A DNA stretch of 13,030 nt from Corallococcus llansteffanensis (lineage in GTDB: Bacteria; Myxococcota; Myxococcia; Myxococcales; Myxococcaceae). The notes below the pieces were generated by a model. The model did not search any database. It was not told the origin of the DNA and saw only the letters and a list, made by a program, of their open reading frames with translations. Positions 1-13,030 of the stretch are shown one piece after another (position 1 is the first letter of the stretch; each line of letters begins with the position of its first letter). The DNA lies in the NCBI RefSeq assembly GCF_003612055.1, contig NZ_RAWB01000277.1:1-13030 (forward strand), written 5' to 3'. A program made the translations under genes and the position numbers.

Positions 1-1
1 G

Positions 2-751
2 CTGTGGCTCACCACGGGCGATGCGCTCCTGTGGCGGCAGACCGGCACGACATCGCCCTGGACGCCGTCCCTGTACCTGCTGGAGGACTTCGCCTCGCCC
101 CAGGTGCAGCTGCGAGCCATCAGCGTGGGCTTCTTTGGATTCTCACCCCTGGGTGGAGGATCCAGCGCCCTGGACTTCCGGGTGGAGTGGCGCACCGCCC
201 ACGAACCCCTGCCCGCGGGCACGCTGCGGCCCGTGAGCCGGGGCGCGACATGCGTGCCGTCCATCCCGGAGGGCTGTCCCTGGACGGACGGCCGGCTCGA
301 AACCGTGGCCCTGTCCAACCCCAAGACAGACCCACGCGTGTACGGCCTCACCGTCACGCTGCCCCAGCCCACGCGCCCGCGCCACGCGGTGGTGCGCGGC
401 CTGCGCCATGCGCACGGCTACGAGGGCAAGGAGTGGCTCGTCCTGGAGGGCAGCCTGGATGGCGAGCACTGGCAGCTCCTCAACCGGACCGTGCTGCGGG
501 ACATGGACTCACGCACCCGGGCCGTGAACGCCGTCCTGCACAACCCCTACGGCGACCTCGCCCCACAGGACTCGCCCTACGGGGATGCCCCCATCCTCCT
601 GGGAGACGAAGAGCCCGTCTTCATCGAGCTGCCCCTGTCCGACGCGGAGCCCGCGCGCTACGTCCGGCTCTCCGTGGAGCTGTTGGACTTCGAAGGCAGT
701 ACATCCCCCGGAGCGCTCATGAAGCTCGCGGAGTTCTCCGTCTTTGAATAG
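2..751 (+). CDS. 3' part (C-terminus) of a larger protein ending in a discoidin / F5-8 type C (galactose-binding-like) domain; 5' end lies outside the window
   Basis: Frame 2 is open from nt 2 (no stop before the first Met at 104) to TAG at 749-751. GC3-rich codons. The C-terminal motifs 'EWLVLEGSLDGEHWQLL' and 'ARYVRLSVELLDFEG' are typical of discoidin domains. The competing frame-1 ORF 4..747 is Arg/Pro/Gly-rich shadow. Confidence 0.6.
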   Translation: MWLTTGDALLWRQTGTTSPWTPSLYLLEDFASPQVQLRAISVGFFGFSPLGGGSSALDFRVEWRTAHEPLPAGTLRPVSRGATCVPSIPEGCPWTDGRLETVALSNPKTDPRVYGLTVTLPQPTRPRHAVVRGLRHAHGYEGKEWLVLEGSLDGEHWQLLNRTVLRDMDSRTRAVNAVLHNPYGDLAPQDSPYGDAPILLGDEEPVFIELPLSDAEPARYVRLSVELLDFEGSTSPGALMKLAEFSVFE

Positions 752-772
752 CGCCGGGCGTTGATGGGTGAC

Positions 773-791
773 GCTGGCAAGCGTTGCCAGC
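773..791 (+). terminator. Perfect 8-bp stem hairpin GCTGGCAA-gcg-TTGCCAGC, 22 nt downstream of the stop at 751; possible terminator or regulator site
   Basis: Read directly from the sequence. No U-tract follows. A near-identical palindrome GGCAAGCATTGCC recurs at 809-821. Confidence 0.3.
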
Positions 792-886
792 AGCTCCCGC
801 CCCCGGACGGCAAGCATTGCCGGGCGCTCCCTGTCAAAACCCCGTGGGCGGGGGGCTTCCGGGCCGGCACGTGGAGTGCACTGCGT

Positions 887-905
887 GTGAACGCAATCCG
901 TTCAC
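887..905 (+). promoter_or_regulatory. 7-bp inverted repeat GTGAACG-caatc-CGTTCAC immediately upstream of the RBS (AGGAG at 910-914) of the gene starting at 924; candidate operator
   Basis: Palindrome seen in the sequence. Position about 20-35 nt upstream of the start codon. Confidence 0.25.
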
Positions 906-923
906 CCCCAGGAGCGCTTCCCC

Positions 924-2729
924 ATGTCACAAAGACTCTCCCTCGGTGCCTTTGGCGCCCTGGCCTCGCTTTGCCTTGCCTCCAGCGCATGGGCCGGCGC
1001 GGTCGAAGACTTCAAGAAGGGCAAGGACGTCCAGCTCACCGCCGTCTCGGCGGTCATGGACGGCGAAATCTACTCCATCGCCGGCTTCCAGATTCCCAAG
1101 GCCGCCGACACGCTCAACATCACCCTCACGGGCGCGGACCTGGGGCTGAACTTCTCCCAGTCCGTCTTCCTCACGGGCGTGCAGAGCGGCAACTCCATCC
1201 TCTGGACGTTCAACCAGACGTTCAATCCCCCCATCGCCGTCGATGGGACGACCGTGGTCAACCACGTCTCCGGGTTGCTCATCGTCAACGCAACCCTGCT
1301 CGCGGGCACCCACCACCCGCTGTGCGGCTTCCAGCCCTGCCTTCGCGACGTGCTGCTCACGCACGCTCCCGGCTCCTGGATCCTCGTGGAGGGAGAGGGC
1401 GCGCTCGGCATCGATTTCTCGCGGCTCGTCATGGTCGACTACTTCCGCGCGCTGGGAGGAATCCCCCAGCCCGGCCTCTCCGCCTTCTACGTCCCGGGCA
1501 CGGCCAAGGTCTGCTCTTCGCCCGTCACGACCTACCTGCCGATGACCGCGTTCCTCACCGGGTTCGCGCCGTCAGGGGGCACGAAGGTCGACTTCGTGAG
1601 CGCCTACCCCAAGGGCCTCAAGGTTCCGCCCAACCTCACCGTCCCCGGCGGTCAATCTACCGCGTCGTTCAAGGCCGCGGTGGCGCCTGACTTCACCGGC
1701 CAGGTGAACGTGGTCGCGTCGTCCGCGGGCGCCATCTACTCCCGCCTGGTGCAGATCTTCCCCCAGGCGGACTGTGACAGCGGCGGCAACCGGAACGACC
1801 CGTTCGACGTGCGGGCCTACGTCCCGGACCTGCTCCTGGGATGCATCAACTGCTCGGAGCTCATCGACCTGGGCATCCGGGGCCAGGGCCTCCTCCGCGT
1901 GCAGGGCCTGGATGTGTACTTCAATGGCAGTCAGCTCCGCCGCCTCTCCAGCGTGTTCGACGTGGTCTCGGTGAGCGCCGTGGACATGACGGACAGCGGG
2001 CTCGTCACCGGCTCGATGGTCGTCCGCGCGGGAGAGGCTCCGGTGGCGTTCAGGGCCAGCCTGGAGGGCGGCCCCACCACCCCGATCGTACTGGGTGCCT
2101 TCACCCCCACCGCCATCACCGCGAGCGGCGTCGTGATTGGCAATCACACCTCACGCACCAGCAGCGTCGCCATGTATCACGATGGCAGGTCGCTGAAGGA
2201 GCTGCCCATCCCCGGCGCCACCCGCAGCCAGGCCCTCGCGGTGAGCGAGGCCGGACACATCGTGGGCACCTACGAGCGGGACGGTGACGTGCGGGCCTTC
2301 CTCTTCACGGAGGGCGTGTTCCGGACGCTTCCCCAGCTTTCGCGCGCCACCACGACGGTCCCCGTGGCGGTCAACAACCGGGGACAGGTGGTCGCCCACT
2401 CCGTGGACGCCACCGGTGCCGTGCTCGCGGTGGCCATCATCGAACCCAATGACACCTTCCACCTCCTCGGCGTGCCCTCCGGCTTCACCGGGCTCACCGC
2501 CACCTCCATCAATGCACGGGGTTGGGTCTCGGCGACCGCCACCTCCCACACCGGGACGAGCGGCTTCCTCTACACCCGCGAGGATGGATGGGTGGATCTC
2601 AACCGCCGGCTCTCTCCGGCCGGCAGCGTGGTGGTGACGGACGCCCTGCGCATCACGGATGCGGATCAGGTGCTGGTGCACGGGACCGCCAACGGCAACC
2701 GCGCGCTCTACCTGCTCACCCTTCCCTGA
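924..2729 (+). CDS. Secreted 601-aa protein with N-terminal signal peptide and C-terminal degenerate ~45-aa repeats resembling the HAF extracellular repeat family
   Basis: ATG at 924 with AGGAG 9 nt upstream. N-terminus 'MSQRLSLGAFGALASLCLASSAWAGA' is a signal peptide with an AWA-G cleavage site. Repeats of the form '…IVGTYERDGDVRAFLFTEGVFRTL…NNRGQVVAHS…' and '…ARGWVSAT…SGFLYTREDGWVDL'. GC3-rich codon usage. Confidence 0.8.
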   Translation: MSQRLSLGAFGALASLCLASSAWAGAVEDFKKGKDVQLTAVSAVMDGEIYSIAGFQIPKAADTLNITLTGADLGLNFSQSVFLTGVQSGNSILWTFNQTFNPPIAVDGTTVVNHVSGLLIVNATLLAGTHHPLCGFQPCLRDVLLTHAPGSWILVEGEGALGIDFSRLVMVDYFRALGGIPQPGLSAFYVPGTAKVCSSPVTTYLPMTAFLTGFAPSGGTKVDFVSAYPKGLKVPPNLTVPGGQSTASFKAAVAPDFTGQVNVVASSAGAIYSRLVQIFPQADCDSGGNRNDPFDVRAYVPDLLLGCINCSELIDLGIRGQGLLRVQGLDVYFNGSQLRRLSSVFDVVSVSAVDMTDSGLVTGSMVVRAGEAPVAFRASLEGGPTTPIVLGAFTPTAITASGVVIGNHTSRTSSVAMYHDGRSLKELPIPGATRSQALAVSEAGHIVGTYERDGDVRAFLFTEGVFRTLPQLSRATTTVPVAVNNRGQVVAHSVDATGAVLAVAIIEPNDTFHLLGVPSGFTGLTATSINARGWVSATATSHTGTSGFLYTREDGWVDLNRRLSPAGSVVVTDALRITDADQVLVHGTANGNRALYLLTLP

Positions 2730-2766
2730 CCCACCTCCCTGCCCACACCCTCAAAGGATTTCCATC

Positions 2767-3519
2767 ATGATGAAGCACAAGAACAAACTCCTGCTCATGG
2801 CGGTCGTGTTCACCCTGTTCCAGGGTTGTGCGAGCTGCCTGCAGGAACCCTGCGTCCCCGGCATCAAGTTCCCGGAGCCCGGGTCCTGTCCCCTCAAGGG
2901 ACATCCCCAGGGCTCGTCCGGAGGAAAGTGCAACAACTTCATCGGCAACTTCGGTTGCGATGATCCGGACCACACGTGTGTCTCCAACACCTGCATTCCT
3001 TGCGGCCAGCCCGGCTCGGTCTGCTGCGAGCATCAGGGGTGCGACGGCATGGCGACGTGCGTGAAGCCCAAGGAGGACCACACCTTTTCCGTCTGCTCCA
3101 ATGAGTGCGTCCAGGTGGGCGACAGCTGCTGCACGAACAACCAGTGCGGCTCCGGCATGGTGTGCAACGCCAACCTCAAGCAATGCGTGCCGGCGAACGA
3201 GCCCACGTGCGGAATGGGCCCCACCCTCTTCGCGCTCGGGGTGATCTCCGACAACACGAAGTGCGGCGACGTGATCTTCATCAAGGAAGCCAGCCTGCAG
3301 GCCGCGAAGCAGTGCGTCCAACCCCAGGTCCAGGCCGCCGGGACGCACTTCGCCCCGGACAACACGCCGCTGCAGGAGTTCACCTTCTGCAACTCCGGCT
3401 CGGGGATCGACCCTTCGGCGACCGTGACCGTGGCGGCGTTCTCCTCAACCGATGCGGCGACGTGCGCCCACAACCTGTGCACCAACTGCGCGAGCACGGC
3501 TCCCGGCCCCTGTCCGTAG
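2767..3519 (+). CDS. Cysteine-rich lipoprotein (~250 aa) with duplicated CC-x3-[GQ]-C-x(1-2)-G-x(2-3)-C modules
   Basis: ATG ATG at 2767 with AAGGA at 2753-2757. 'MMKHKNKLLLMAVVFTLFQGC' contains a lipobox LFQG-C. About 30 Cys residues. Repeated blocks 'GSVCCEHQGCDGMATC' and 'GDSCCTNNQCGSGMVC'. It lies 37 nt after the upstream gene, consistent with an operon. Confidence 0.75.
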   Translation: MMKHKNKLLLMAVVFTLFQGCASCLQEPCVPGIKFPEPGSCPLKGHPQGSSGGKCNNFIGNFGCDDPDHTCVSNTCIPCGQPGSVCCEHQGCDGMATCVKPKEDHTFSVCSNECVQVGDSCCTNNQCGSGMVCNANLKQCVPANEPTCGMGPTLFALGVISDNTKCGDVIFIKEASLQAAKQCVQPQVQAAGTHFAPDNTPLQEFTFCNSGSGIDPSATVTVAAFSSTDAATCAHNLCTNCASTAPGPCP

Positions 3520-3532
3520 CCGCGGGCCCATG

Positions 3533-3574
3533 AAAAAAGCCCGGTCGGCCCTCTGGGAAAGAGGGCCGCCGGGC
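3533..3574 (-). terminator. Intrinsic terminator for the minus-strand gene 3604..5247: 14-bp stem with a 1-nt bulge and a 7-nt loop, followed on the minus strand by a U6 tract; also lies 3' of the plus-strand gene
   Basis: aaaaaa-GCCCGGtCGGCCCTC-tgggaaa-GAGGGCCGCCGGGC read from the sequence. The A6 on the plus strand gives U6 after the stem on the minus-strand transcript. Confidence 0.7.
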
Positions 3575-3603
3575 GAGCTCACAAGCGTGGGAGGCGGGGA
3601 CGA

Positions 3604-5247
3604 CTACCCGTTGCGGCGCACCATCGCGACGTCGTAGCGGCGGTCCGTCACGTAGCCCTCGGCGGCCTTGCCGGGGCGGGTCATCGCGCCCGTCTTCTCA
3701 TCCACGTAGAAGCGGTTGTTGGGGTTGGTGTCCTTGCCCTTGCTCGCGTTGGTCGTCCCCGGGTCGTGGAACGTGTAGTAGGTGCGGCCCTTGTCGTCGA
3801 CGCCGCGGCCCGTGATGGTCACGAAGTGGTCCGTGAGCCCGTCCGCGTTGTACTTCGCGTCCTTGTGGCTGACGCCCACCACCACCGGCTTGCCGGCGTC
3901 CAGCTGCTGGTCGATGTACTTGCGACCCTCGGCGGCCTTCTTGGAGTTCACCGAGAGCTGGCCGGTGCTGTTCTCGCTGGTGCCCACCTGGATGCGGCTG
4001 TCCGGGCCCGTCACGTTCGCGCCCACCTTGCCGGCCATCGCCTTCGCGGCGTCGAAGCACGCGGTCTTGCTGGGGGTGAAGCCGTGGCCGCCCTCGAACT
4101 GGCTGTAGTACGGCACCTTCACGTGCACCGCGGGGCCCGACTTGGACGGCGCCACCGTCTGCGTGTCGTTGAGGTCCACTTCCGTGGTGGGCTTCTGCGA
4201 GTTGGCGCCCGTCGTGTTGCTCGTGGCCGGCTTCGTGTTGCTCGTGGCCGGCTTCGTGCCGCCCGTCGTGTTGCTCGTGGCCGGCTTCGTGTCTGCCGTC
4301 GTGGTACCCGGGGTCGTGGTGCCGCCCGCCTTCTCCTTCTTGAGCAGCGCGAGCGCGTCCTTCACCTCGGACTTGAAGCGGTTGGCCACGCCCTCCTGCA
4401 CGCTCTTGGAGTTGCTGGAGAAGTGCACCAGCGTGCCGCTGGAGTTGGTGCGGCCGCGCTCGGCGTAGATGTCCTTGATGAGCTGCTCGTCGCTCACCTT
4501 GGAGGGGTCGCGGCCGGCCAGCGCCTTCTTGAAGATGTCATCCGCCGCGCCCGGCCCGTGCTGCACGGACGTGGACCAGGCCACGTCGCGCAGCGCCGCG
4601 GACCGCGTGTCCAGGTCGATGCCCGTCGCCTTCTTGATGTTGGCGGCGCCCACGTCGTAGTGCGTGGCCTTGATGTAGTCGTGCTGCGCCTTGTCGAAGC
4701 CCTTGGGGTCCTTCGCCGCGAGCTGCTTCCACGCGTTGGAGAACGCCTCCGAGCCCGGCTTGCTGCCCGACAGCGCCGCGTGGAACTCCGGGTTGCTCTT
4801 CTTCAGCGAGTTCACGAACGACTGCGCGGACCCGTTCGCCGACGCGAACTGGTAGGAGCCGTACGACACGCCGCCGTGGTCGCCCTTGCCCGTGGACACC
4901 GTGCCGGGGCCACGCGCCTCGTACTTGCGGCTCAGCCCGCCCAGCTCGCCGCCACCCGCCGGAGCCGTCGTCTGCTTCGTGGTGTCCGTCGCCTTCGTCC
5001 CGCCCGTGTTGGACGTCGCCGGCTTGGTGGTGTTGGTGGCCGGCTTCGTGCTCGTGCCACGCGGGGGCTTCGTGTCGAAGCCGTCCGGGATGCGCAGCGA
5101 CTGGCCCGCGCGGATGCGGTCCGGGTCCTTGATGTTGTTGGCCTTGGCCAGCGCCGCCACCGTCGTGTCGTTGCGCTTCGCGATCGCGGAGAGGGTGTCG
5201 CCGGAACGGACGCGGAGGCTGGAGACGGTCATCGAAGGCACCTTCAT
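3604..5247 (-). CDS. Multidomain putative peptidoglycan hydrolase: N-terminal LysM domain, Thr-rich linkers, a central lysozyme-like (GH108-like?) domain, and a C-terminal papain-fold Cys peptidase (Peptidase_C39_2 / YvpB-like). No signal peptide
   Basis: LysM: 'SLRVRSGDTLSAIAKRNDTTVAALAKANNIKDPDRIRAGQSLRIP'. Central domain: 'GDHGGVSYGSYQF…FDKAQHDYIKATHYD', resembling the D-x-GG-x-T-x-YG muramidase motif. C-terminal 'VPYYSQ…KTACFDAA…DHFVTITG' carries a catalytic Cys/His pair. An alternative start at the in-frame ATG 5232 (Met6) has an AAGGTG SD-like sequence 7 nt upstream. The antisense ORF 3766..5295 is shadow. Confidence 0.85.
   Translation of the reverse strand: MKVPSMTVSSLRVRSGDTLSAIAKRNDTTVAALAKANNIKDPDRIRAGQSLRIPDGFDTKPPRGTSTKPATNTTKPATSNTGGTKATDTTKQTTAPAGGGELGGLSRKYEARGPGTVSTGKGDHGGVSYGSYQFASANGSAQSFVNSLKKSNPEFHAALSGSKPGSEAFSNAWKQLAAKDPKGFDKAQHDYIKATHYDVGAANIKKATGIDLDTRSAALRDVAWSTSVQHGPGAADDIFKKALAGRDPSKVSDEQLIKDIYAERGRTNSSGTLVHFSSNSKSVQEGVANRFKSEVKDALALLKKEKAGGTTTPGTTTADTKPATSNTTGGTKPATSNTKPATSNTTGANSQKPTTEVDLNDTQTVAPSKSGPAVHVKVPYYSQFEGGHGFTPSKTACFDAAKAMAGKVGANVTGPDSRIQVGTSENSTGQLSVNSKKAAEGRKYIDQQLDAGKPVVVGVSHKDAKYNADGLTDHFVTITGRGVDDKGRTYYTFHDPGTTNASKGKDTNPNNRFYVDEKTGAMTRPGKAAEGYVTDRRYDVAMVRRNG
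4213..4290 (-). repeat. In-frame tandem 21-nt repeat (three copies of CGTGTTGCTCGTGGCCGGCTT at 4213, 4234 and 4267) encoding KPATSNT linker repeats on the minus strand. A second Thr/Pro-rich linker region lies at about 4960-5060
   Basis: Perfect 21-mer copies read directly from the sequence. Translation of the minus strand gives TKPATSNTKPATSNT. Confidence 0.65.
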
Positions 5248-5424
5248 GTCGGGCCGCGAACAACGGGGGTCGCGGACGTGATTGGATTGCCGTGATTATC
5301 GACAGGCAATGAAGGCAGTTTCTCATTCTCAGTCACAATCGTGTCAAACCAGTGATTCCAGTAACTTCAGTTTCGGCGGATCAATCCGCTGAGACTAGAG
5401 AACCCGCCCAGGAGGCCCAATCGG
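5248..5424. promoter_or_regulatory. Divergent intergenic promoter region, locally AT-richer, between the LysM-peptidase gene (minus) and the secreted protein gene (plus). Contains GTGATT x3, the inverted repeat ATTGCC-n13-GGCAAT and the palindrome CGGATCAATCCG (5377-5388)
   Basis: Drop in GC compared with the flanks. Divergent gene starts on both sides. AGGAGG RBS at 5410-5415 for the plus-strand gene. Confidence 0.4.
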
Positions 5425-6456
5425 ATGTCCAGGATCCAACCGGATTTCAAAATTTTGCCATTGCTGTTCGCCCTTGGCCTCACGGGCGCGGTCCCGAATG
5501 CCTCGGCTCAGGGGCCTGGAGGACTCACGGGCGTCTATTCCAAGGATGGCGGGGCGCTGGCCATCGTCGAGGGGAGCAACGAGACGCTGATCCACTACTC
5601 GGCCGGCTTTCCGCAGGGCGACAGCGTGGGCACGTGCGACTGCGCGCTGGTCGTTCAACGCAAGACGTCAACGCGCTGGACGCTGAACGTGGCCGGGGAG
5701 AAGGAGCCCTGGACGCTGCGCGTCGAACCCAAGCAGCTCGTCCTGGAGACGAAGGCGCCCACCTGCTGCGGCGCGGGCTACCCGGGCAAGGACACCTTCA
5801 CGCGGGGCACGCCCCAGCCGCTGACCGTCTGCAAGGTGAAGGCATCCAAGGCGGGCTTCTTCGCGTCGGATGAAGCCAATACGCCGCGCAAGACGTTCGT
5901 GGTGTCTGGCGACGCGGTGGAGGCCTACCTGGACCCCGTGGAGCCGGACCTCATCCCCGCGCGCTTCCAGGGGCCCCAGAAGGCCACGGCGGGGCTGCTC
6001 AAGCGCGCGGACCTGGACTGCGAGGCGGCCAAGGCCCCCACGGCGAGCAAGGCGCCCGTGGCGGCCGACAAGCTCCAGCCCTTCGCGGGCACATGGGTGG
6101 AATTGACGCGCAAGGGCAAGGGCTTCGTCATCCTCAAGCCCTGCTCCGCCAAGAACCGCAGCTTCACCGTCAAGCCCGCGACGGGCGAGGTGGAGGTGCA
6201 GCTGGGACAGGAGGCGACGACACTGAAGGCGACGTCGCTGGAGCCCGGCAAGGGCGCCGGGGCCTGGGTGCTGGGGCTCACGTCCACGGAGGGCAAGCCG
6301 GAGGCGCTCCAGTGGAAGACGGCCGACGCGGCGAAGGGCACCGTGTCGGTGACGAGCCCGGACCTCTTCTCCCAGAGCCATGACTACGTGCGTCAGGAGA
6401 AGCAGTCCGCGTTCCCGGTGAAGCAGGAGACCGGCTGCGACGAGTACGAGCAGTAG
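5425..6456 (+). CDS. Secreted hypothetical protein (343 aa) with signal peptide
   Basis: ATG at 5425 with AGGAGG 9 nt upstream. N-terminus 'MSRIQPDFKILPLLFALGLTGAVPNASAQG' is a signal peptide. GC3-rich coding frame. The antisense ORFs 5668..6381 and 5925..6341 are shadows. Confidence 0.75.
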   Translation: MSRIQPDFKILPLLFALGLTGAVPNASAQGPGGLTGVYSKDGGALAIVEGSNETLIHYSAGFPQGDSVGTCDCALVVQRKTSTRWTLNVAGEKEPWTLRVEPKQLVLETKAPTCCGAGYPGKDTFTRGTPQPLTVCKVKASKAGFFASDEANTPRKTFVVSGDAVEAYLDPVEPDLIPARFQGPQKATAGLLKRADLDCEAAKAPTASKAPVAADKLQPFAGTWVELTRKGKGFVILKPCSAKNRSFTVKPATGEVEVQLGQEATTLKATSLEPGKGAGAWVLGLTSTEGKPEALQWKTADAAKGTVSVTSPDLFSQSHDYVRQEKQSAFPVKQETGCDEYEQ

Positions 6457-6460
6457 CGCG

Positions 6461-7372
6461 TCACGGGTCCGGGCGCTCCGCCCCCGGGTTCAGCCGGGGC
6501 GCGCCTCCCGGGCCCAGCAGGCCCTGCATGGCGTCGAAGAGGTTGAGGTTGGAGCCGCTGGGGAGGAAGACGACCTTGTCCAGGCCTCCCACGACGGCGG
6601 CCTGGGCCTGGGCCGCGACGGCCTTCACGAAGTTCTCCCCGCCCCCCAGCGCCTCCACGCGCTGGCGGAACTGCGAGGCCTCCACCTCGGCGAGCCGGGA
6701 CTGGCGCTCCACCTCCAGGTCGTTCAGGCGCTGCTGCCGCTCCAGGGCCATCTGGGTCGTCAGGCGCTCGCGCTCCAGCTCCGCCTCGGAGCGGATGCGG
6801 GAGGCGCGGGCGTCGGACTCGGCGCGGGCCAGGGCCTCCTCGCTCTCCACGCGGGCCTTCTCCAGCGACACGACGGTGACGGACTCGTCGGGCACGTAGC
6901 GACCGGGCCCGCGCACCAGCCACTCGTCGCCGGCCTCGCGGCGGCGGGGCGCGTCCGGGGCGCGTGCGTCCGTGAAGGCGGTGAGCGCGCGCAGGCGCAG
7001 CGCTTCCGACACGCCCAGCACGTACTCCGGGACGATGTCGCCCTCCAGCTCCTCGCCCGGATACAGCGGGAACACCTTGGGGCCGACGCGGACCTCGCGG
7101 TCCCCCACCGCCAGCCGGGCCTGGCCGAAGTCGTCCAGCACCACCTGGCCGTCCACGCGCACCACGGGGTTGCGCACCACGCACCAGTTGCCGGCGCCCA
7201 CCTCCACCATCCGCTCCTTGGCGACGAGCGTGAGGTGCGCCTCCAGGGTCAACACCCGGGGCCCCACCTCCATCAGCACCACCCCCCGGTTGGCGTCCTC
7301 GATGTATGCGTATTCGCGATTCTTCAGGGAGATGCGCTGGATGGCTTCGGTGCTGGGGAGGGCGGACGGCAC
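6461..7372 (-). CDS. Major vault protein (MVP)-like protein, 303 aa: MVP repeats 1 to ~3 fused through a short coiled coil to an MVP cap-helix/cap-ring-like C-terminus; repeats 4-9 and the shoulder domain are absent
   Basis: GTG start at 7372 (first in-frame start; no SD). The N-terminus aligns with human MVP repeats 1-3 and the C-terminus with the MVP cap-helix end (details in findings). The other-frame ORF 6393..7379 is Gly/Pro/Arg-rich shadow. GC about 75 %. Confidence 0.8.
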   Translation of the reverse strand: MPSALPSTEAIQRISLKNREYAYIEDANRGVVLMEVGPRVLTLEAHLTLVAKERMVEVGAGNWCVVRNPVVRVDGQVVLDDFGQARLAVGDREVRVGPKVFPLYPGEELEGDIVPEYVLGVSEALRLRALTAFTDARAPDAPRRREAGDEWLVRGPGRYVPDESVTVVSLEKARVESEEALARAESDARASRIRSEAELERERLTTQMALERQQRLNDLEVERQSRLAEVEASQFRQRVEALGGGENFVKAVAAQAQAAVVGGLDKVVFLPSGSNLNLFDAMQGLLGPGGAPRLNPGAERPDP

Positions 7373-7467
7373 GGGGCACCTGCTCGGGGCGGAGGGTTCA
7401 CCCGCGAGTCATTGCCAGCCGCGTGCCGCGCCCTGCCCGTCCTGAAACGATCCTGCGATGTTCCGAC

Positions 7468-7519
7468 CTGGAACAGCCGCCCGCTCCATTCCGGAGCGGG
7501 CGGCGGTCCAGACTGGCGC
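7468..7519. repeat. 52-nt imperfect hairpin repeat, copy A (CTGGAACAGCCGCCCGCTCCATTCCGGAGCGGGCGGCGGTCCAGACTGGCGC), immediately 3' of the minus-strand gene ending at 7525; terminator-like (11-bp stem, 5-nt loop), no U-tract
   Basis: 50/52 identical to copy B at 8824-8875. Core CCGCCCGCTCC/GGAGCGGGCGG stem plus outer CTGGA/TCCAG arms, read from the sequence. Confidence 0.6.
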
Positions 7520-7524
7520 GCCTT

Positions 7525-8700
7525 TCAGTCCTTGTGGATCCACACGAGCATGCGCGTCGCGTCATAGAGCACGAACCTGGCGTCCCGAAGGAAGGAATTG
7601 CCAACCTGCGCCGCCGGGGTGGTCCAGGTAGCAATCCCCCCACACTTGAGGCTTGCCGGCGTCGGTGTCTTGATGAACAGGTGGGCATCTCCATAGGAGC
7701 GCACGGGCTGATCGTCGGTGCCCATGAACTCCAGCCGCGCGCCTTCGGGAAGGAGAAACTCCTGGACCGTGTCGTTGGCCCCTCCGCACGCACTCAGCTG
7801 GCTGGGCGGCGTCCCGACCGGAACGGTTTTGACTCCCGCCTTGGTCAACATCTCAAGCAACGCCTTGTTGCCATAGAGGCTGTGCCTGACGATTGAATCA
7901 TCAAGCCCTGAGTCCAGCTGGCCTATGAAACGCGCCCCGCCCATCCGCAATGGAACGGTAGGCACGTTCGGCACAAGCTCACTGGCACCCGCGCCTGAAC
8001 GGAGCCGGGTCATGTTGAACAACCCCGAATCGTTGATCGCGAAGTAGCCGCGGGTTGTGAGCGGCCGCAACCCGGCACTCTTGAGCTGGTCGTCATCGCA
8101 CAAGGATCCAGAGCGATTCCGGAAGACAAGCGAGCGCTCATAGTCGAGCGCGAAGGTATTGAGCACCAGGAAGTCAGCCCCCACGATACCCGCCTGTCGC
8201 CCGACTGTCGGGTCTACTTTGTTGCCCGAGTGGTCAGCTTGTGCAAGGCACACGTTTCCCCATCCACCAAAGAAATCAAAGTTCCCAAAGCGGCAAAACG
8301 TGCCCGCGACTCCTGACTGGCAGAGGGTTTGATCTCGAGCGCAGTTATCAACAATCACCTCCGGCTCGTTCTGTCCGAACGCTTGGTGCGCCCGGTCAAT
8401 CGTGCTGTACGTCGAACCGAAGTCCAGCAGGAACCTACCCGTGAGCGGAGCGCCCGAGGGTGCCGACAACTTGACCTCAACAAATGGCCATTGGCCAGAC
8501 ACCCAGAGAGGTCTGCGCTCCCCCAGACACGCATCCAAGCTGGAGAACGGCCGACTGCTGGCGACTTCTGGCTGAGCAGGGGCGGCTTGTTCAGGTTTGT
8601 GGGCACAGGCAGGCAACAGCCAAAGCGCCAGCACTGCCGCGCCCAGGCGCCAAAGCAGCCCAGCGTCGAGACTGGCATACCCCTGTTTTTCGGCAGACAT
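7525..8700 (-). CDS. Lipoprotein (391 aa). Two D-x-G motifs ('LLDFGSTYS' and 'IGQLDSGLDDS') about 170 residues apart suggest a pepsin-like (A1) aspartic peptidase fold; function tentative
   Basis: ATG at 8700. 'LALWLLPAC' lipobox. Clearly lower GC (about 55-63 % per 60-nt line) than the neighbouring genes (about 70-78 %), with a less GC-biased third position. The spacing of the two Asp motifs resembles pepsin D32/D215. Confidence 0.7.
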   Translation of the reverse strand: MSAEKQGYASLDAGLLWRLGAAVLALWLLPACAHKPEQAAPAQPEVASSRPFSSLDACLGERRPLWVSGQWPFVEVKLSAPSGAPLTGRFLLDFGSTYSTIDRAHQAFGQNEPEVIVDNCARDQTLCQSGVAGTFCRFGNFDFFGGWGNVCLAQADHSGNKVDPTVGRQAGIVGADFLVLNTFALDYERSLVFRNRSGSLCDDDQLKSAGLRPLTTRGYFAINDSGLFNMTRLRSGAGASELVPNVPTVPLRMGGARFIGQLDSGLDDSIVRHSLYGNKALLEMLTKAGVKTVPVGTPPSQLSACGGANDTVQEFLLPEGARLEFMGTDDQPVRSYGDAHLFIKTPTPASLKCGGIATWTTPAAQVGNSFLRDARFVLYDATRMLVWIHKD

Positions 8701-8823
8701 GTACAGTCATCCCCCAGATGGTGATTGCGGCCAACACCCTAACACGAACACCGCGGCGGGGACGCTTGGTGCCCTCCCCGGTGAAGTGCAGTTCCTGGAA
8801 GCGGGCCCAGGAAGCCAGGGATG

Positions 8824-8875
8824 CTGGAACAGCCGCCCGCTCCATTCCGGCACGGGCGGCGGTCCAGACTGGCGC
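8824..8875. repeat. 52-nt hairpin repeat, copy B (…CATTCCGGCACGGGCGG…), immediately 3' of the GDSL lipase gene ending at 8886 and about 120 nt 5' of the low-GC lipoprotein gene
   Basis: Direct repeat of copy A in the same orientation. The two mismatches sit in the loop-proximal stem, leaving a 7-bp core stem plus outer arms. Confidence 0.6.
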
Positions 8876-8885
8876 ACCGGGGTGA

Positions 8886-9779
8886 CTACTGAGCGCTCCA
8901 CGCCTCCACGGTCCACTCGTCGGCGGAGAGGCCGGCGCTGAAGCCGAGGGCGTCGGAGACGAGGTCATGGCCGTAGTCCGCGAAGATGCGGTGGCTGTAG
9001 CTCGTGGGGTGGATCTCATCCCAGAACAGGTACGTGTCCGGGTTGACAGCCTTGCCCTTGCTGGTGCCGGTGACGTTCGTCAGGCCGTACGCGGACGGCG
9101 ACGCGATGATGGCGTTGAACTGGTTGTAGGCGTTCATCCCGATGAAGGTGACGGACGGGAAGTCCTGGCGCAGCTTCGTCAGCGATTGCGCCCACAGGGT
9201 GTTGAACTGGCTGGTGGGAGGAGCGAGCACGGTGGTGCCCAGGCCGCCCGGGACGGACAGCGCCGCCGGCGTCTTGTTCAAGGGCGGCATGTTCACCCAC
9301 AGGATGCGCTTCGCGCCCGCCGCGACGAGCTTGCGGATCTGCCCATTGATGTTGGAGACGGCCGTCGTCGCCGCGGCCTTGATGCCAGCCGAGTCGAACG
9401 GGTTCGCCTGGGCCTTGTAGTTGATGTCATTGCCCCCGCCCCAGAGGACATACAGCGCCGTGGAGGACGCCGTCGGGTGGGCCGCCAGGTAGCTGTTCAC
9501 CTGGCTCGTCATCCCGCTGGTGACGGCGCCGCCCCGGGCATAGTTCGTGCCGCCGCTGTCGGACGCCGTCAGGGGCAGGCCCAGCTGCGTAGCGAGCTGC
9601 TTCACCCAGGTGCCGGCAATCTGGCTGGAGGGATTCGTCGTCGGACCGCTGGTGGCGATGCCGTTGTTGCCGTTGTCACTCAGGCTGTCGCCAAACACGA
9701 CGATGCTGCTCTGCGCGCCAGCGTGGAACGGGAGGAGGACGGCCAAGATGGCCGCGAGCAACAGGAAGGGATGCTTCAT
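8886..9779 (-). CDS. Secreted GDSL/SGNH-family lipase/esterase (copy 1)
   Basis: ATG at 9779 (GAGGAG RBS upstream). An in-frame GTG at 9794 is the track start, but the ATG matches the paralog alignment. 'MKHPFLLLAAILAVLLPFHAGAQS' is a signal peptide. SGNH blocks: 'VVFGDSLSDNGN', 'YARGGA', 'WGGGNDI', 'DEIHPT'. The start ATG overlaps the upstream gene's stop TGA as ATGA. Confidence 0.85.
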   Translation of the reverse strand: MKHPFLLLAAILAVLLPFHAGAQSSIVVFGDSLSDNGNNGIATSGPTTNPSSQIAGTWVKQLATQLGLPLTASDSGGTNYARGGAVTSGMTSQVNSYLAAHPTASSTALYVLWGGGNDINYKAQANPFDSAGIKAAATTAVSNINGQIRKLVAAGAKRILWVNMPPLNKTPAALSVPGGLGTTVLAPPTSQFNTLWAQSLTKLRQDFPSVTFIGMNAYNQFNAIIASPSAYGLTNVTGTSKGKAVNPDTYLFWDEIHPTSYSHRIFADYGHDLVSDALGFSAGLSADEWTVEAWSAQ

Positions 9780-10672
9780 GGCTGCGCGCTCCACTCCTCA
9801 ACGGTCCACTCGTCGGCGGTGAAGCCGGCGCTGAAACCGAAGGCATCGGAGACGAGGTCGTACGCGTAGTTCGCGAAGATGCGGTGGCTGTAGCTCGTCG
9901 GGTGGATTTCATCCCAGAACAGGTACTTGTCCGGGTTGACCGCCTTGCCCTTGCAGGTGCCGGTGACGTTCGTCAGCCCATACGCGGACGGGGCCGCGAT
10001 GATGGCGTTGAACTTGTTGTAGGCGTTCATCCCGATGAACGTGACGGACGGGAACTCGCCGCGCAGCTTCGTCAGGGACTGGGACCAGAGCGTGTTGAAC
10101 TGGGAGCTGGGCGGCGAAAGCACGCTGCTGCCCAGGCCGAACGGGATGGACAGCGCCGCGGGCGTCTTGTGGAGCGGCGGCATGTTCACCCACAGGACGC
10201 GCTTCGCGCCCGCGGCGACGAGCTTGCGGATCTGCCCTTCGATGTTGGAGACGGCCTTGGTCGCCACGGCCTTGATGCCAGCCGAATCGAACGGGTTGTC
10301 CATCGCCTTGTGATGGATGTCGTTGCCGCCGCCCCAGAGGACATACAGCGCCGTGGACGACGCCGTCGGGTGGGCGGTGAGGTAGGCGTTGACCTGGTTC
10401 GTCATGTCGGCCGTGACCGAGCCGCCCTGCGCGTAGTTCGTGCCTCCCTCGTCAGAGGCCACGAGCGGCAGGTCCAGCTGGTCCGCGAGCTGTTTCACCC
10501 AGGGACCGGAGATCTGGCTGGAGGGATTCGTCGTCGGACCGCTCGTCGCGGTGCTGTACTTGCCGTTGTCACTCAGGCTGTCGCCAAACGCGACGATACT
10601 GCTCTGCGCGCCAGCGTGGAACGGGAGGAGGACCGCCAGGGCGGCCGCGAACGACAGGAAGGGATGTTTCAA
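9776..10672 (-). CDS. Secreted GDSL/SGNH-family lipase/esterase (copy 2, tandem paralog). Start uncertain: TTG at 10672 (aligned with the copy 1 start) or GTG at 10720
   Basis: Protein about 80 % identical to copy 1, with the same SGNH blocks ('VAFGDSLSDNGK', 'WGGGNDI', 'DEIHPT'). 'LKHPFLSFAAALAVLLPFHAGAQS' aligns with the copy 1 signal peptide. GGAG lies 8 nt upstream of the TTG. No in-frame ATG near the N-terminus. Confidence 0.8.
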   Translation of the reverse strand: MKHPFLSFAAALAVLLPFHAGAQSSIVAFGDSLSDNGKYSTATSGPTTNPSSQISGPWVKQLADQLDLPLVASDEGGTNYAQGGSVTADMTNQVNAYLTAHPTASSTALYVLWGGGNDIHHKAMDNPFDSAGIKAVATKAVSNIEGQIRKLVAAGAKRVLWVNMPPLHKTPAALSIPFGLGSSVLSPPSSQFNTLWSQSLTKLRGEFPSVTFIGMNAYNKFNAIIAAPSAYGLTNVTGTCKGKAVNPDKYLFWDEIHPTSYSHRIFANYAYDLVSDAFGFSAGFTADEWTVEEWSAQP

Positions 10673-10784
10673 GGAGGGCTCCGAGAGGGGGGAACACAGG
10701 CGTCTGCCGCACTGTGTCACCGATCTCGGAGCTTTTCCAGGTTTCTCTACGCTTCCATGTTTTATTCCGGATGTTTCAGCGGGC
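10673..10784 (-). promoter_or_regulatory. Putative promoter/leader of the tandem GDSL operon (AT-richer 'ttccatgttttattccggatgtttcagc') and 3' region of the upstream minus-strand gene
   Basis: Local AT enrichment between the stop at 10785 and the GDSL start. Inference only. Confidence 0.25.
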
Positions 10785-11474
10785 TCAGCCCCGCGCGGCG
10801 CGGGCGTCGCGGCCCTTGGCGCGGGCGGCCTTGGAGAGCAGGTCGGAGCCCTTCTCCTCGCCCTTCATCCACGCCTTCATCGCGGGGACGACCTGCTTGC
10901 TCCACGCGCGGCCGCCGCGCACGGCGAGGAAGGCCGTCACCAGCGCGTCCACCAGGGCGGAGAGCTGTTCGGTCAGCTCCAGGCGCTCGGTGAGCTGATC
11001 ATCCTCCTCCTCGGTCATCAGGGCGGGCAGCTTGGCGGCGCGGATGTCCAGGAACTCCGCATCCAGGGTGAGCTCGAACTCGCGCTCGCCGTGGGAGATG
11101 CGCAGCCGCGCCTGGGACACAAGCAGCCCCCGGTCCAGCGAGTGCCGCACGTTCTCCGAGTACGGAGCCAGCGTGCCGCGCGCGCTCAACTCCGTGACGT
11201 CACCGGCCACGCCGCGCAGCACCACCTTGCCCAGGTAGAGCGCCGTGACGGACGCGCCGTCGTGCTCCACCAGCGGGTCGCCGGACTCCGTGCGCCACAG
11301 CAGCCACGTCAGGAACTCGCGCCCCAGGTAGGCCCGGCCGCGCAGGAGCTGTTCGCGCGCCTTGCCCTGTTCGACCTCGGCCTCGTCCTTGACCTCTTCG
11401 GTCGAGCCACCATCCACGCCCACGTCGCCCCGGGCGAACGCCGCCTCGATCCGCGCCTGCTCACCCTTCGCCAT
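10785..11474 (-). CDS. Protein resembling the C-terminal half of recombination-associated protein RdgC (229 aa), with an acidic N-terminal extension
   Basis: ATG at 11474 with GGAGGACAGCC upstream, a strong SD. 'LGREFLTWLLWRTESGDPL…GKVVLRG…LRISHGEREFELTLDAEFLDIRAAKLP…DDQLTERLELTEQLSALVDALVTAFL' parallels E. coli RdgC 'LTLTEWVRSGSAPQGF…GGVIRAKK…[26 protein letters not shown]…[30 protein letters not shown]' (E. coli sequence recalled from memory). Overlaps the upstream ORF by 14 nt in a different frame. Confidence 0.6.
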   Translation of the reverse strand: MAKGEQARIEAAFARGDVGVDGGSTEEVKDEAEVEQGKAREQLLRGRAYLGREFLTWLLWRTESGDPLVEHDGASVTALYLGKVVLRGVAGDVTELSARGTLAPYSENVRHSLDRGLLVSQARLRISHGEREFELTLDAEFLDIRAAKLPALMTEEEDDQLTERLELTEQLSALVDALVTAFLAVRGGRAWSKQVVPAMKAWMKGEEKGSDLLSKAARAKGRDARAARG

Positions 11475-12111
11475 GGCTGTCCTCCACCGAAGCCGTCGCC
11501 GGCAGGTCCATTCCGATGAGCTCCGCCGTGGGGCCCAGGGCCTTGTCGTCGATGCCCGCGCGCTGCGCCATCGAGGCGGGCGTGATGCCAATCACCTTCA
11601 CCGCCAGGGCGCCTTCCAGGGCCACGGAGATCTCATCCACCGTCTTGCGGGACGCGGCCCAGATCTGCACCTGCTGCGTCTTCAGGTTCCACGTCACGTC
11701 CAGCACGCTGGTGCGCGGCACGGCCCGCTGCCGGAGCAGCTGCTTCAACTCCGCGCGCTGCTTGTTCTTCTCCGCGCGCGCGGGCGGGCGGCTGTTCTCC
11801 TTGGCGAAGGCGGAGGACCACTTGTCCAGCTCCGCCTTCATCATGGAGGCGGGGACCTTCAGGGTGTCGATGCGGAAGGCGAAGAGGGCGTACTCGCCAT
11901 AGAAGAGGTTGCTGGTGGAGAAGTCGGAGGCCTCCGCGTTCTCCAGCTCCACGAAACCGGCCGCGCGCTCATCTTCGGAGCGGCGGTCGATGGGCTCGAA
12001 CGCATGGGACTTGAGTCCCTTGGTCAGCCAGCGCTTCACGTCGGACGGCGCATCCTTGGCCGGCTCGGTCCGGAAGCGCGAAAAGGTCACGGCACCACGT
12101 AGGACAGGCAT
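11461..12111 (-). CDS. rdgC: RdgC-family (recombination-associated) protein, N-terminal two-thirds (216 aa)
   Basis: ATG at 12111 (no SD). 'MPVLRGAVTFSRFR…LKSHAFEPI…FAFRIDTLKVPASMMKAELDKW…RAEKNKQRAELKQLLRQRAVPRTSVLDVTWNLKTQQVQIWAASRKTVDEISVALEGALAVKVIGITP' aligns with E. coli RdgC residues about 1-180 ('MLWFKNLMVYRL…[23 protein letters not shown]…[69 protein letters not shown]'). The upstream in-frame extension to 12783 is Arg/Pro/Gly-rich non-coding shadow. Confidence 0.6.
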   Translation of the reverse strand: MPVLRGAVTFSRFRTEPAKDAPSDVKRWLTKGLKSHAFEPIDRRSEDERAAGFVELENAEASDFSTSNLFYGEYALFAFRIDTLKVPASMMKAELDKWSSAFAKENSRPPARAEKNKQRAELKQLLRQRAVPRTSVLDVTWNLKTQQVQIWAASRKTVDEISVALEGALAVKVIGITPASMAQRAGIDDKALGPTAELIGMDLPATASVEDSHGEG

Positions 12112-12324
12112 GGGGCGCGGGAGGATGGGGGGCCGGTGCCGTGGCGTCAAGGCACTCGGGGTGGCTGGACGCACTCGCGTGGGAATAGCCGGCGCACCCG
12201 GCCGTTGCGCGCCCGTCGTCCCTGCCCGGTCGCCCTCCGGGCCGTCTTCCCGTGCACGCCCGCCCGTCCCCGCCGGCCGGAAACCATGACACTCCCAGGC
12301 ACGCGACATACGGTGGCCGCCGCC
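12112..12324. promoter_or_regulatory. Divergent intergenic region between the rdgC-like gene (minus) and the PBP4-like gene (plus)
   Basis: Bounded by two divergent start codons. Very GC-rich, with no recognisable SD for either gene. Confidence 0.3.
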
Positions 12325-13030
12325 ATGCGCCGAGCCCTCCTCCCCGTCAGCGTCTCCACCGCCACCGTCCTGCTGTCCGCCTGCGCCCACGTGCCTTCCG
12401 GGCCGGAGGCCCCCCCGGGGAGCACCCTGCCCGGCGTCACCCGCACCCTGCTGGAGACGCTGGAGGCGGACGGCGCGCTCGCCGGCGCGTATGTGGTGGA
12501 CGCGCGCACCGGCGAGCCCCTCTTCAAGCACCGGGAGAACGTGCGGCTCCTGCCCGCGTCCACGATGAAGGTGGTGTCCACCTCCGCGGCGCTGTCCGCG
12601 TTGGGGGCGGACTTCCGCTTCGTGACGCCGGTGTCGCTGGAGGGTTCGCAGGTGGGCGGCCTGTTCCTGGGCGACATCGTGGCGCAGGCCTCCGGCGACC
12701 CGTCCCTGGGCTCGTGGCGCTTCCCGGAGACGGCGCTCGCCTGCGACCGCATCGCGGAGGCGTTCCAGGCGCGCGGCATCCACCAGTGGCGCGGCAACGT
12801 GCGCATCGCCGGCACCGACGGCGTGGACGGCCTCATGGGGCCGGGCTGGGCCTGGGATGACGCCGCCTATGCCTACAGCGCGGCGCCCACCCCGTTCGTC
12901 TTCCGCGAGAACGTGGTGGACCTGGCCCTGGCCCGCGCCCCCGGCTCCACCTGCGCGGACGCGCCCGCCGTCCAGTGGACCCCCACCTTCGCCACGCTGT
13001 CCGCCGTGGTGCGCGTGGACGTCAACGCGG
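12325..13030 (+). CDS. dacB: D-alanyl-D-alanine carboxypeptidase/endopeptidase, PBP4 (peptidase S13) family lipoprotein; 3' end lies outside the window
   Basis: 'MRRALLPVSVSTATVLLSAC' is a lipoprotein signal peptide with an LSAC lipobox. 'LLPASTMKVVSTSAALSALG' contains the SxxK active-site motif in the PBP4-typical context (E. coli DacB 'LPASTQK'). The frame is open to the window end. An alternative in-frame ATG lies at 12286. ORFs 12252..12860(+) and 12147..12836(-) are shadows. Confidence 0.7.
   Translation, partial: MRRALLPVSVSTATVLLSACAHVPSGPEAPPGSTLPGVTRTLLETLEADGALAGAYVVDARTGEPLFKHRENVRLLPASTMKVVSTSAALSALGADFRFVTPVSLEGSQVGGLFLGDIVAQASGDPSLGSWRFPETALACDRIAEAFQARGIHQWRGNVRIAGTDGVDGLMGPGWAWDDAAYAYSAAPTPFVFRENVVDLALARAPGSTCADAPAVQWTPTFATLSAVVRVDVNA

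Follow-up and report, generated by a model that had tools for sequence, protein, structure and literature searches.

A predicted leaderless three-module wall hydrolase of Corallococcus llansteffanensis and its divergent partner gene form a candidate effector/immunity pair

The window analysed here is a stretch of 13,030 nucleotides from the myxobacterium Corallococcus llansteffanensis (contig NZ_RAWB01000277.1, positions 1 to 13,030). Its reverse strand carries a gene for a predicted hydrolase. The protein starts with a LysM module and continues with a lysozyme-type domain and a papain-fold cysteine peptidase domain, each of them preceded by a Thr/Pro linker; a second gene, referred to as g5, diverges from the hydrolase gene on the forward strand. 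The original prediction, which was made from this DNA alone, had proposed a peptidoglycan-targeting enzyme with three modules (LysM, lysozyme-like, C39-like), and the domain searches agree with it in kind. It missed that both catalytic modules are, by sequence comparison, homologous to toxin domains of type VI secretion system (T6SS) effectors, and it did not see that g5 is a conserved partner whose modelled fold makes it a candidate for the matching immunity protein. The features are collected in Table 1. All coordinates are window positions, and residue numbers are counted throughout from the ATG at 5247, i.e. in the version of the protein with 547 amino acids (aa).

Table 1. Features of the hydrolase gene, its partner gene g5 and the region between them
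Feature	Position	Strand	Evidence
Hydrolase coding sequence, three modules	3604..5232	-	542 aa from conserved ATG 5232; orthologues at 95-34% identity
Likely ribosome-binding site GAAGG	5241..5245	-	8 nt before ATG 5232; GAAGG/GAGGG in relatives
LysM, peptidoglycan/N-acetylglucosamine-glycan binding module, residues 12-54	5086..5214	-	Pfam PF01476, 2e-16; PDB LysM matches
Thr/Pro/Lys-rich linker 1, residues 58-100	4948..5076	-	Composition and orthologue alignment
VgrG3-C-like glycoside hydrolase domain, residues 102-294	4366..4944	-	PF21277, 2.8e-53
Thr/Pro-rich linker 2, residues 306-372, TKPATSNT repeats	4132..4332	-	Composition, alignment
BtaeB-CTD-like (C-terminal domain) papain-fold Cys peptidase/amidase domain, residues 375-547	3607..4125	-	C39-like; 9JDD_A/9JG8_C match
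Intrinsic terminator, 15-bp GC-rich hairpin and U6	about 3533..3574	-	30 nt past hydrolase stop codon
Divergent intergenic region between hydrolase gene and g5, presumed common regulatory region	5248..5424	.	High conservation
g5, candidate immunity protein, 343 aa	5425..6456	+	Divergent from hydrolase gene, about 180 bp apart

According to the list of open reading frames (ORFs) and its translation, the hydrolase ORF covers 3604..5247 on the reverse strand and encodes 547 aa. The GC content at its third codon positions (GC3) is 0.97 in a window with 68% GC, and we thus regard it as a genuine gene. When the upstream regions of eight Corallococcus genomes were aligned, the ATG at 5247 was found replaced by CTG, ACG or ATA in the relatives, and the ATG at 5232 was conserved. 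Because of this conservation, the hydrolase most likely has 542 aa; it is a basic protein (isoelectric point 9.65) of about 57 kDa. Upstream of 5247 the frame remains open only to 5295, and none of these 16 codons is a start codon, so that a hidden leader cannot be encoded further upstream. An upstream in-frame start with a signal peptide, which the original prediction had named as a finding that would refute it, is ruled out by the in-frame stop 16 codons upstream together with the conservation of the start codon.

The absence of a signal peptide at either start, which had been predicted, was borne out. The maximum Kyte-Doolittle hydropathy (window of 10 aa) within residues 1-60 is 0.88, compared with 2.61 for the true signal peptide of the neighbouring protein, and no stretch of 19 aa in the whole protein exceeds 0.51, which leaves no membrane-spanning segment. 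All of the approximately 120 homologues that we retrieved, from Myxococcota and apparently from Acidobacteriota (those with a name are Pyrinomonadaceae), open directly with the first LysM strand. The missing leader is thus a conserved property of the family and not an artefact of annotation. In lacking a Sec or Tat signal peptide, the hydrolase conforms to what is required of a T6SS cargo effector. The strong terminator that had been noted after the gene was also recovered: the 82-nt stretch containing it folds with -41.9 kcal/mol (z = -4.2), and none of 200 shuffled sequences was equally stable. A scan for consensus terminators detected nothing downstream of the hydrolase gene, because a bulge in the stem hides the hairpin from such a scanner.

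The LysM module stands at the extreme N-terminus, as predicted, and this placement is kept in all homologues. Both linkers are indeed rich in Thr (30-33%) and Pro (10-12%). Linker 1 varies in length among orthologues, and in some relatives it contains a second LysM.

The middle domain matches PF21277 (T6SS_VgrG3-like_C) with 181.1 bits against a cut-off of 27 and over positions 1-182 of the 183 in the profile. It also aligns with the C-terminal domain of Vibrio cholerae VgrG3 (PDB 4NOO_A and 4NSO_A, E 7e-28) in such a way that the motifs KYE and GDxGG coincide. In VgrG3 these two motifs lie 15 residues apart, which matches E827 (Glu of KYE) and D842 (Asp of GDxGG), the pair that we take to be catalytic in VgrG3. 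For the hydrolase, Glu110 (4918-4920, in KYE) and Asp123 (4879-4881, in GDHGG) are the predicted catalytic residues, and both motifs are retained in every orthologue with a PF21277 domain. The original prediction had noted a resemblance of this region to the GH108-type muramidases. The Glyco_hydro_108 profile gave no match at E<=1, and the region is completely covered by PF21277; the domain is lysozyme-like, but not of the GH108 type.

VgrG3 degrades peptidoglycan (PMC6099711) and shares with the hydrolase the PF21277 domain, the KYE...GDxGG arrangement and the predicted type of toxin, a peptidoglycan-degrading protein without a Sec leader. However, in VgrG3 the domain is fused to the VgrG spike, whereas here it lies between LysM and a second catalytic domain. 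The immunity protein of VgrG3 is TsiV3/TsaB, but there is neither a TsiV3- nor an LprI-type gene adjacent to the hydrolase gene, and no T6SS genes are nearby.

The C-terminal domain is similar in sequence and structure to the solved toxin domain of BtaeB. It matches PDB 9JDD_A/9JG8_C with 1e-21 at about 30% identity. Entry 9JDD, with its companion 9JG8, is the T6SS effector-immunity complex BtaeB CTD-BtaiB of Bacteroides fragilis, and it also bears the title "Peptidase C39-like domain-containing protein". BtaeB corresponds to Bfe7 of Li et al. 2025 (Cell Host Microbe 33:1901), going by the citation of that work in PMC13402684; its activity is taken here only from its name and the PDB title. 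The N-terminal part of BtaeB (617 aa) binds the adaptor and the spike, while LysM and the muramidase occupy this place in the hydrolase.

Four residues of the C-domain, Gln383 (oxyanion), Cys397 (4057-4059), His474 (3826-3828) and Asp495 (3763-3765), are invariant in 40 relatives, and Cys397 is the only cysteine of the hydrolase. The Cys and the His are also (nearly) invariant in 81 distant members of the domain family, and both align with 9JDD_A. A search of Pfam with residues 375-547 yielded only a weak hit to BtrH_N at 0.015 (16 bits, threshold 29.7). The domain had been described as typical of Peptidase_C39_2. The papain fold stands, 9JDD is itself C39-like and several homologues of the hydrolase score PF13529 (Peptidase_C39_2), but the protein studied here remains below the gathering threshold of that family. 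It further differs from the C39 and C39_2 peptidases (bacteriocin-processing and YvpB-like enzymes) in lacking a fused ABC transporter, and its domain family is associated with peptidoglycan-binding domains and not with leader-peptide substrates.

By a profile search of 1.84 billion representatives, the C-domain family was found to have 1,638 members. Among 81 long or distant ones, PG_binding_1 occurs in 27, LysM in 7 and PG_binding_3 in 4; PG_binding_2, SH3_3, SLH, Amidase_2, VanY/M15_4 and Hydrolase_2 occur in smaller numbers, and one member has a cargo domain of extracellular contractile injection systems. PF21277 is combined with CHAP, M23 and PG_binding domains in other proteins. These wall-binding and wall-peptidase partners place both modules with the peptidoglycan hydrolases, and we consider it very probable that the protein is itself one. 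A fungal target, i.e. chitin or chitosan instead of peptidoglycan, has to be considered since chitin, too, is a ligand of LysM and the fold of VgrG3-C is similar to that of GH46 chitosanases. Corallococcus preys on fungi, and a precomputed GH46 match (PF01374) is found in two orthologues (P0037 and P0039). However, the great majority of the domains combined with either module bind peptidoglycan or are peptidoglycan peptidases, the relative of the C-domain is an antibacterial effector with an immunity protein and VgrG3 itself acts on peptidoglycan. We thus regard a fungal target as extremely improbable.

All genes of the window were compared with 49 loci by tblastn. The one neighbour that travels with the hydrolase gene beyond Corallococcus is g5; the others are not conserved outside this genus. 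A profile search located g5 in a divergent, adjacent position in 20 other genomes at 44-91% identity, in the genera Corallococcus, Cystobacter, Archangium and Pyxidicoccus and in one Myxococcus sp.; a frameshift affects the copy in Cystobacter fuscus NCWS (L016). In a database of 5.8 billion proteins the family comprises 22 clusters without Pfam domains, and those with a named source are all myxobacterial (Corallococcus, Archangium). The g5 protein has a Sec signal peptide with cleavage after ASA at about residue 29 and contains eight invariant cysteines, which argues for an exported protein with disulfide bonds.

Sequence searches with g5 in Pfam (E<=10), PHROGs (E<=0.001) and, by profile, the PDB (E<=10) were empty. 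The AlphaFold model (predicted local distance difference test score 79) is all-beta and consists of two barrels around an SH3-like module, with modules at about 33-126, 134-200 and 210-340. Its fold is BtaiB-like, but there is no sequence similarity to BtaiB, which has 125 aa compared with the 343 aa and three modules of g5. The N- and C-terminal barrels have no detectable similarity to each other. A shared G-x-Y first strand and a common Cys pattern had suggested kinship of the N-terminal barrel with the lipoproteins that adjoin LysM-PF21277 genes in Luteimonas and Caulobacter; this was rejected, as the hhalign probabilities were below 2%.

The intergenic region between the two genes has a mean identity of 86% in the eight Corallococcus genomes, compared with only 75-80% for the flanking proteins, which suggests common regulation. 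It includes a near-invariant block (GAAACTGAAGTT..GGAATCACTGGTTTGACA; GAAACTGAAGTTnCnGGAATCACTGGTTTGACAnGATTG). A promoter scan of 5248-5424 did not find a sigma-70-type promoter. Taking the pairing, the export signal and the fold of g5 together, we consider it fairly probable that the hydrolase and g5 form an effector/immunity pair.

None of the secretion genes that were searched for was found in the surroundings. Every ORF of the window and of 51 loci was compared by phmmer with VgrG from Erwinia and with SctU, SctV and SctC from Caulobacter, and no homologue lies near any myxobacterial copy. Pfam searches with the neighbours in the window and in four loci detected no T6SS family, holin, Kil or other secretion gene. 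The original prediction had proposed to look for holin, T6SS or kil genes nearby; in these searches none turned up within 10 kb of the gene, with more than 20 genomes covered. The supplement of the secretome paper on C. silvisoli contains GH19 sequences only and gives no sign that this hydrolase is secreted.

The neighbourhood also bears on the likeness to endolysins that had been pointed out. Similar to the hydrolase, phage endolysins and virion lysins are leaderless and combine wall-binding with catalytic modules, and PF21277-type domains are present in jumbo Erwinia phages. Jumbo-phage proteins annotated as "putative endolysin" are 41-47% identical to the middle domain, and the LysM matches PHROGs of endolysins. 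The protein might accordingly be stored in the cytoplasm and released onto the cell's own wall in developmental lysis, sporulation or a phage-like lysis. In contrast to phage lysins, however, its LysM is N-terminal, the C-domain has no phage family in the PHROG/phage comparison, and the gene is chromosomal, syntenic across genera and accompanied by a dedicated exported partner. Spanin, holin or phage genes were found neither in the window nor in the syntenic related loci, and the lysis cassette of a phage endolysin is thus missing. The shared middle domain is what stands of the endolysin likeness; the phage and holin context does not, and an endogenous lysin or autolysin appears very unlikely to us.

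The modules of the hydrolase also occur apart: there are LysM+PF21277 proteins (~300 aa), LysM+C-domain proteins (~280 aa) and C-domains that stand alone. In the orthologue of the M. xanthus group (P0060; L025-L029, L046), LysM and C-domain are kept and a different middle module without a Pfam match ("...TSEGNRTP...") is inserted. Judged by sequence, such swapping is typical of polymorphic toxins. The gene of the M. xanthus group is located between an OprO/P-like porin gene (before) and an ATP-grasp-like gene (after). The upstream gene (455 aa) does not suggest itself as an immunity gene, since by its sequence motif it resembles an OprO/P-type porin and it has no similarity to g5.

Several variants were observed in other genomes. 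In one Corallococcus sp. (CP114039.1; L050, 6190-8849), a paralogue of 282 aa with LysM and C-domain (P0122) lies in tandem behind the three-domain gene, so that the toxin cassette is locally expanded. The middle domain of one Archangium orthologue (P0044) is without its catalytic half, which has been lost. In Erwinia piriflorinigrans, PF21277 forms an extension of VgrG, and the gene is followed by one for an LprI lysozyme inhibitor and by another vgrG. In Pyrinomonadaceae (Acidobacteriota; L003-L005, about 9000-9924), a leaderless LysM-PF21277 gene (~300 aa) lies directly after alanine racemase and amid ribosomal-protein and dnaB genes, with many near-identical clusters in soil metagenomes. 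Three Caulobacter species (L036, 6260-21656; L041; L042) possess a set of non-flagellar type III secretion system (T3SS) genes (SctU, FliO-like, SctV and the SctC secretin), which is flanked by leaderless putative antibacterial toxins: a protein of 576 aa with 2xLysM-X-PF21277, whose gene has a lipoprotein gene downstream, as well as an Endonuclease_NS_2 toxin and a class-3 lipase. Possibly these loci encode interbacterial toxins linked to a T3SS.

From these results the locus probably represents an uncharacterised weapon/antidote pair. The reading that we favour by a small degree is that of a leaderless bifunctional toxin that degrades peptidoglycan, is paired with g5 as periplasmic immunity protein and is delivered from cell to cell, with the T6SS as the favoured route. 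The LysM module would anchor the toxin on glycan strands, the VgrG3-type domain (Glu110/Asp123) would cleave the sugar backbone and the BtaeB-type papain-fold domain (Cys397/His474/Asp495) would cleave the peptide part, as an amidase or an endopeptidase; both cuts together would dissolve the sacculus. The g5 protein would reach the periplasm via Sec, where at least one of its beta-barrel modules may block the toxin as BtaiB blocks BtaeB. Since an antidote in the periplasm makes sense only if the toxin enters the periplasm of sister cells, delivery by a cell-to-cell machine that is independent of Sec appears most likely; the machine that we favour is the myxobacterial T6SS, with the toxin as its cargo.

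Contact-dependent delivery is suggested by the T6SS effector and immunity relatives of the modules and of the g5 fold, by this logic of the antidote and by the precedent of TsxE. TsxE (MXAN_5572) is a T6SS-dependent effector of M. xanthus with LysM and an amidohydrolase domain, and its immunity gene TsxI (MXAN_5571) lies downstream (PMC5801462). It comes from the same clade and is likewise leaderless, with a LysM-type start METYVVK (read from the cloning primer), a predicted target in the wall and a dedicated immunity gene (PMC5801462). However, TsxE carries amidohydrolase_2 where the hydrolase carries PF21277 and the BtaeB-like domain, and tsxEI lies directly downstream of vgrG2 in the same direction, whereas vgrG is missing here and the partner is divergent. 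Tse4 of Acinetobacter baumannii is described in bioRxiv 10.1101/2021.03.04.433973 as combining glycan- and peptide-cleaving activities in one polypeptide, a bifunctionality that is predicted for the hydrolase. The catalytic families differ.

A number of observations weigh against this reading. Neither the window nor any of more than 20 related loci has a vgrG homologue within 10 kb of the gene (the search for PAAR, Hcp and adaptor genes did not extend to all loci), and the hydrolase has no known T6SS loading domain (PAAR, MIX, FIX, Rhs). A cargo effector would be expected to contain such a domain or to be encoded close to a vgrG, PAAR, hcp or adaptor gene, and neither was the case at the loci checked. 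The PF21277 family is also found beside T3SS genes in Caulobacter and in a housekeeping block in Acidobacteriota, and it is therefore not tied to the T6SS. The immunity candidate diverges from the toxin gene and does not share an operon with it, and the toxin gene has a terminator behind it. The candidate tracks the PF21277 domain and not the BtaeB-like domain whose immunity fold it resembles. In sequence it is not similar to any known immunity protein, and it is missing beside the orthologue of the M. xanthus group and in Archangium primigenium, although their C-domain triads are intact. Finally, the Thr/Pro linkers and the secreted hydrolases in the neighbourhood would also fit a freely released extracellular enzyme. 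As to the missing linkage, however, the T6SS effector loci of M. xanthus are said to be scattered over the chromosome, where orphan loci are usual (PMC10433427). Considered by itself, the T6SS is a possible export route to which we give somewhat less than an even chance.

Prey is killed and lysed on contact by myxobacteria, and the effectors of their Kil system, of the needle-less T3SS* and, largely, of the T6SS are unidentified (PMC10433427). The same toxin/immunity pair could be delivered at the contact between predator and prey by the T3SS* and/or the Tad-like Kil system, as an effector for prey lysis. The T3SS* is needed for prey lysis and its effectors are unidentified (review PMC10433427), which makes this route a serious rival. 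T3SS substrates lack Sec leaders, and the Caulobacter loci show a leaderless 2xLysM-X-PF21277 protein with its lipoprotein among non-flagellar T3SS genes in three species. However, these three loci are syntenic and amount to one independent observation. T3SS or kil genes are near none of the myxobacterial loci examined, in the conserved protein the LysM already begins near residue 5, which leaves no room for a disordered N-terminal secretion signal, and an immunity protein is less expected for a weapon used on prey only. On balance, export by the T3SS* or Kil seems rather unlikely.

The enzyme could also be bacteriolytic and freely released, leaving the cell through the lysis of siblings or in outer-membrane vesicles and attacking, from the outside, such walls as are exposed in Gram-positive prey or in damaged cells; in this case g5 might be a periplasmic inhibitor against leakage or functionally unrelated. 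The Thr/Pro linkers, the wall-binding module and the high isoelectric point are typical of extracellular lysins, and secreted hydrolases are encoded nearby (GDSL lipases and an S13 peptidase here, GH19 and a ricin lectin in Archangium). Other members of the family, e.g. P0133 and P0141, have classical signal peptides, and a leaderless GH19 of Corallococcus with N-terminal LysM is likewise predicted to be secreted by a non-classical route (PMC10875029). Still, the strict conservation of g5 in five genera would be hard to explain if the producer were already shielded by its outer membrane, and the closest characterised relatives of both catalytic domains are injected effectors. Release without a dedicated machine is thus unlikely in our estimate.

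A leaderless LysM start of the form M-x-x-Y-x-[IV]-[RK]-x-GDTL is common to several myxobacterial lytic proteins (PMC10875029, PMC5801462). Different catalytic domains follow it: GH19 in C25GH19C and its relatives, amidohydrolase_2 in TsxE, and PF21277 with the BtaeB-like domain in the protein studied here. The shared start suggests a common head module. In a broader and more doubtful version, the leaderless N-terminal LysM would serve as a head for trafficking or targeting that is common to the wall toxins of a polymorphic family in myxobacteria. The hydrolase would be a contact-dependent lytic effector (T6SS or T3SS*/Kil) against the walls of prey or non-kin, with g5 as a composite immunity protein. 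The family would comprise TsxE, the LysM-GH19 enzymes, the hydrolase and the M. xanthus version with the swapped middle module.

With these reservations, the pair provides a concrete candidate effector for contact killing by myxobacteria, a conserved leaderless wall toxin with two predicted enzymatic activities and a putative antidote in five genera. It would link a T6SS effector/immunity pair of Bacteroidota, solved only in 2025, to soil predators. The VgrG3-type muramidase appears as a free cassette that is used in T6SS spikes, T3SS-linked loci, jumbo phages and housekeeping contexts. As a basic, predicted bifunctional lysin with a single cysteine and a wall-binding module, the protein might also be a plausible scaffold for enzybiotics.

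Several other genes of the window were annotated as well. Next to g5 lies a bacterial homologue of the Major Vault Protein (MVP) with Vault_2 and Vault repeats (6461-7372, reverse strand). With 303 aa it is an internal-deletion allele. The closest relative has the full-length gene, whose two ends correspond to residues 1-178 and 170-298 here, and about 1.3 kb are thus gone. The full-length gene in other Corallococcus encodes 758-759 aa, including the MVP shoulder. The vault gene of the window is followed by a lipoprotein-like ORF of 391 aa (7525-8700, reverse strand) with a GC3 of 0.72, compared with about 0.9 in its neighbours, no Pfam match and no counterpart in the related Corallococcus loci; this ORF was probably inserted only recently into the space that separates the vault gene from the GDSL lipase genes. 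The latter are tandem GDSL lipase/acylhydrolase paralogues (8886-9794 and 9776-10720, both on the reverse strand) that overlap by 19 nt, and a gene for a peptidase S13 (D-Ala-D-Ala carboxypeptidase) starts at 12103 on the forward strand. On the other side of the hydrolase gene, a Cys-rich lipoprotein with the lipobox LFQGC (2767-3519, forward strand) converges on the terminator, beside a gene for a secreted protein of 601 aa without a Pfam match (924-2729, forward strand). Neither of these two genes is found in any relative but the closest, Corallococcus sp. CA053C.

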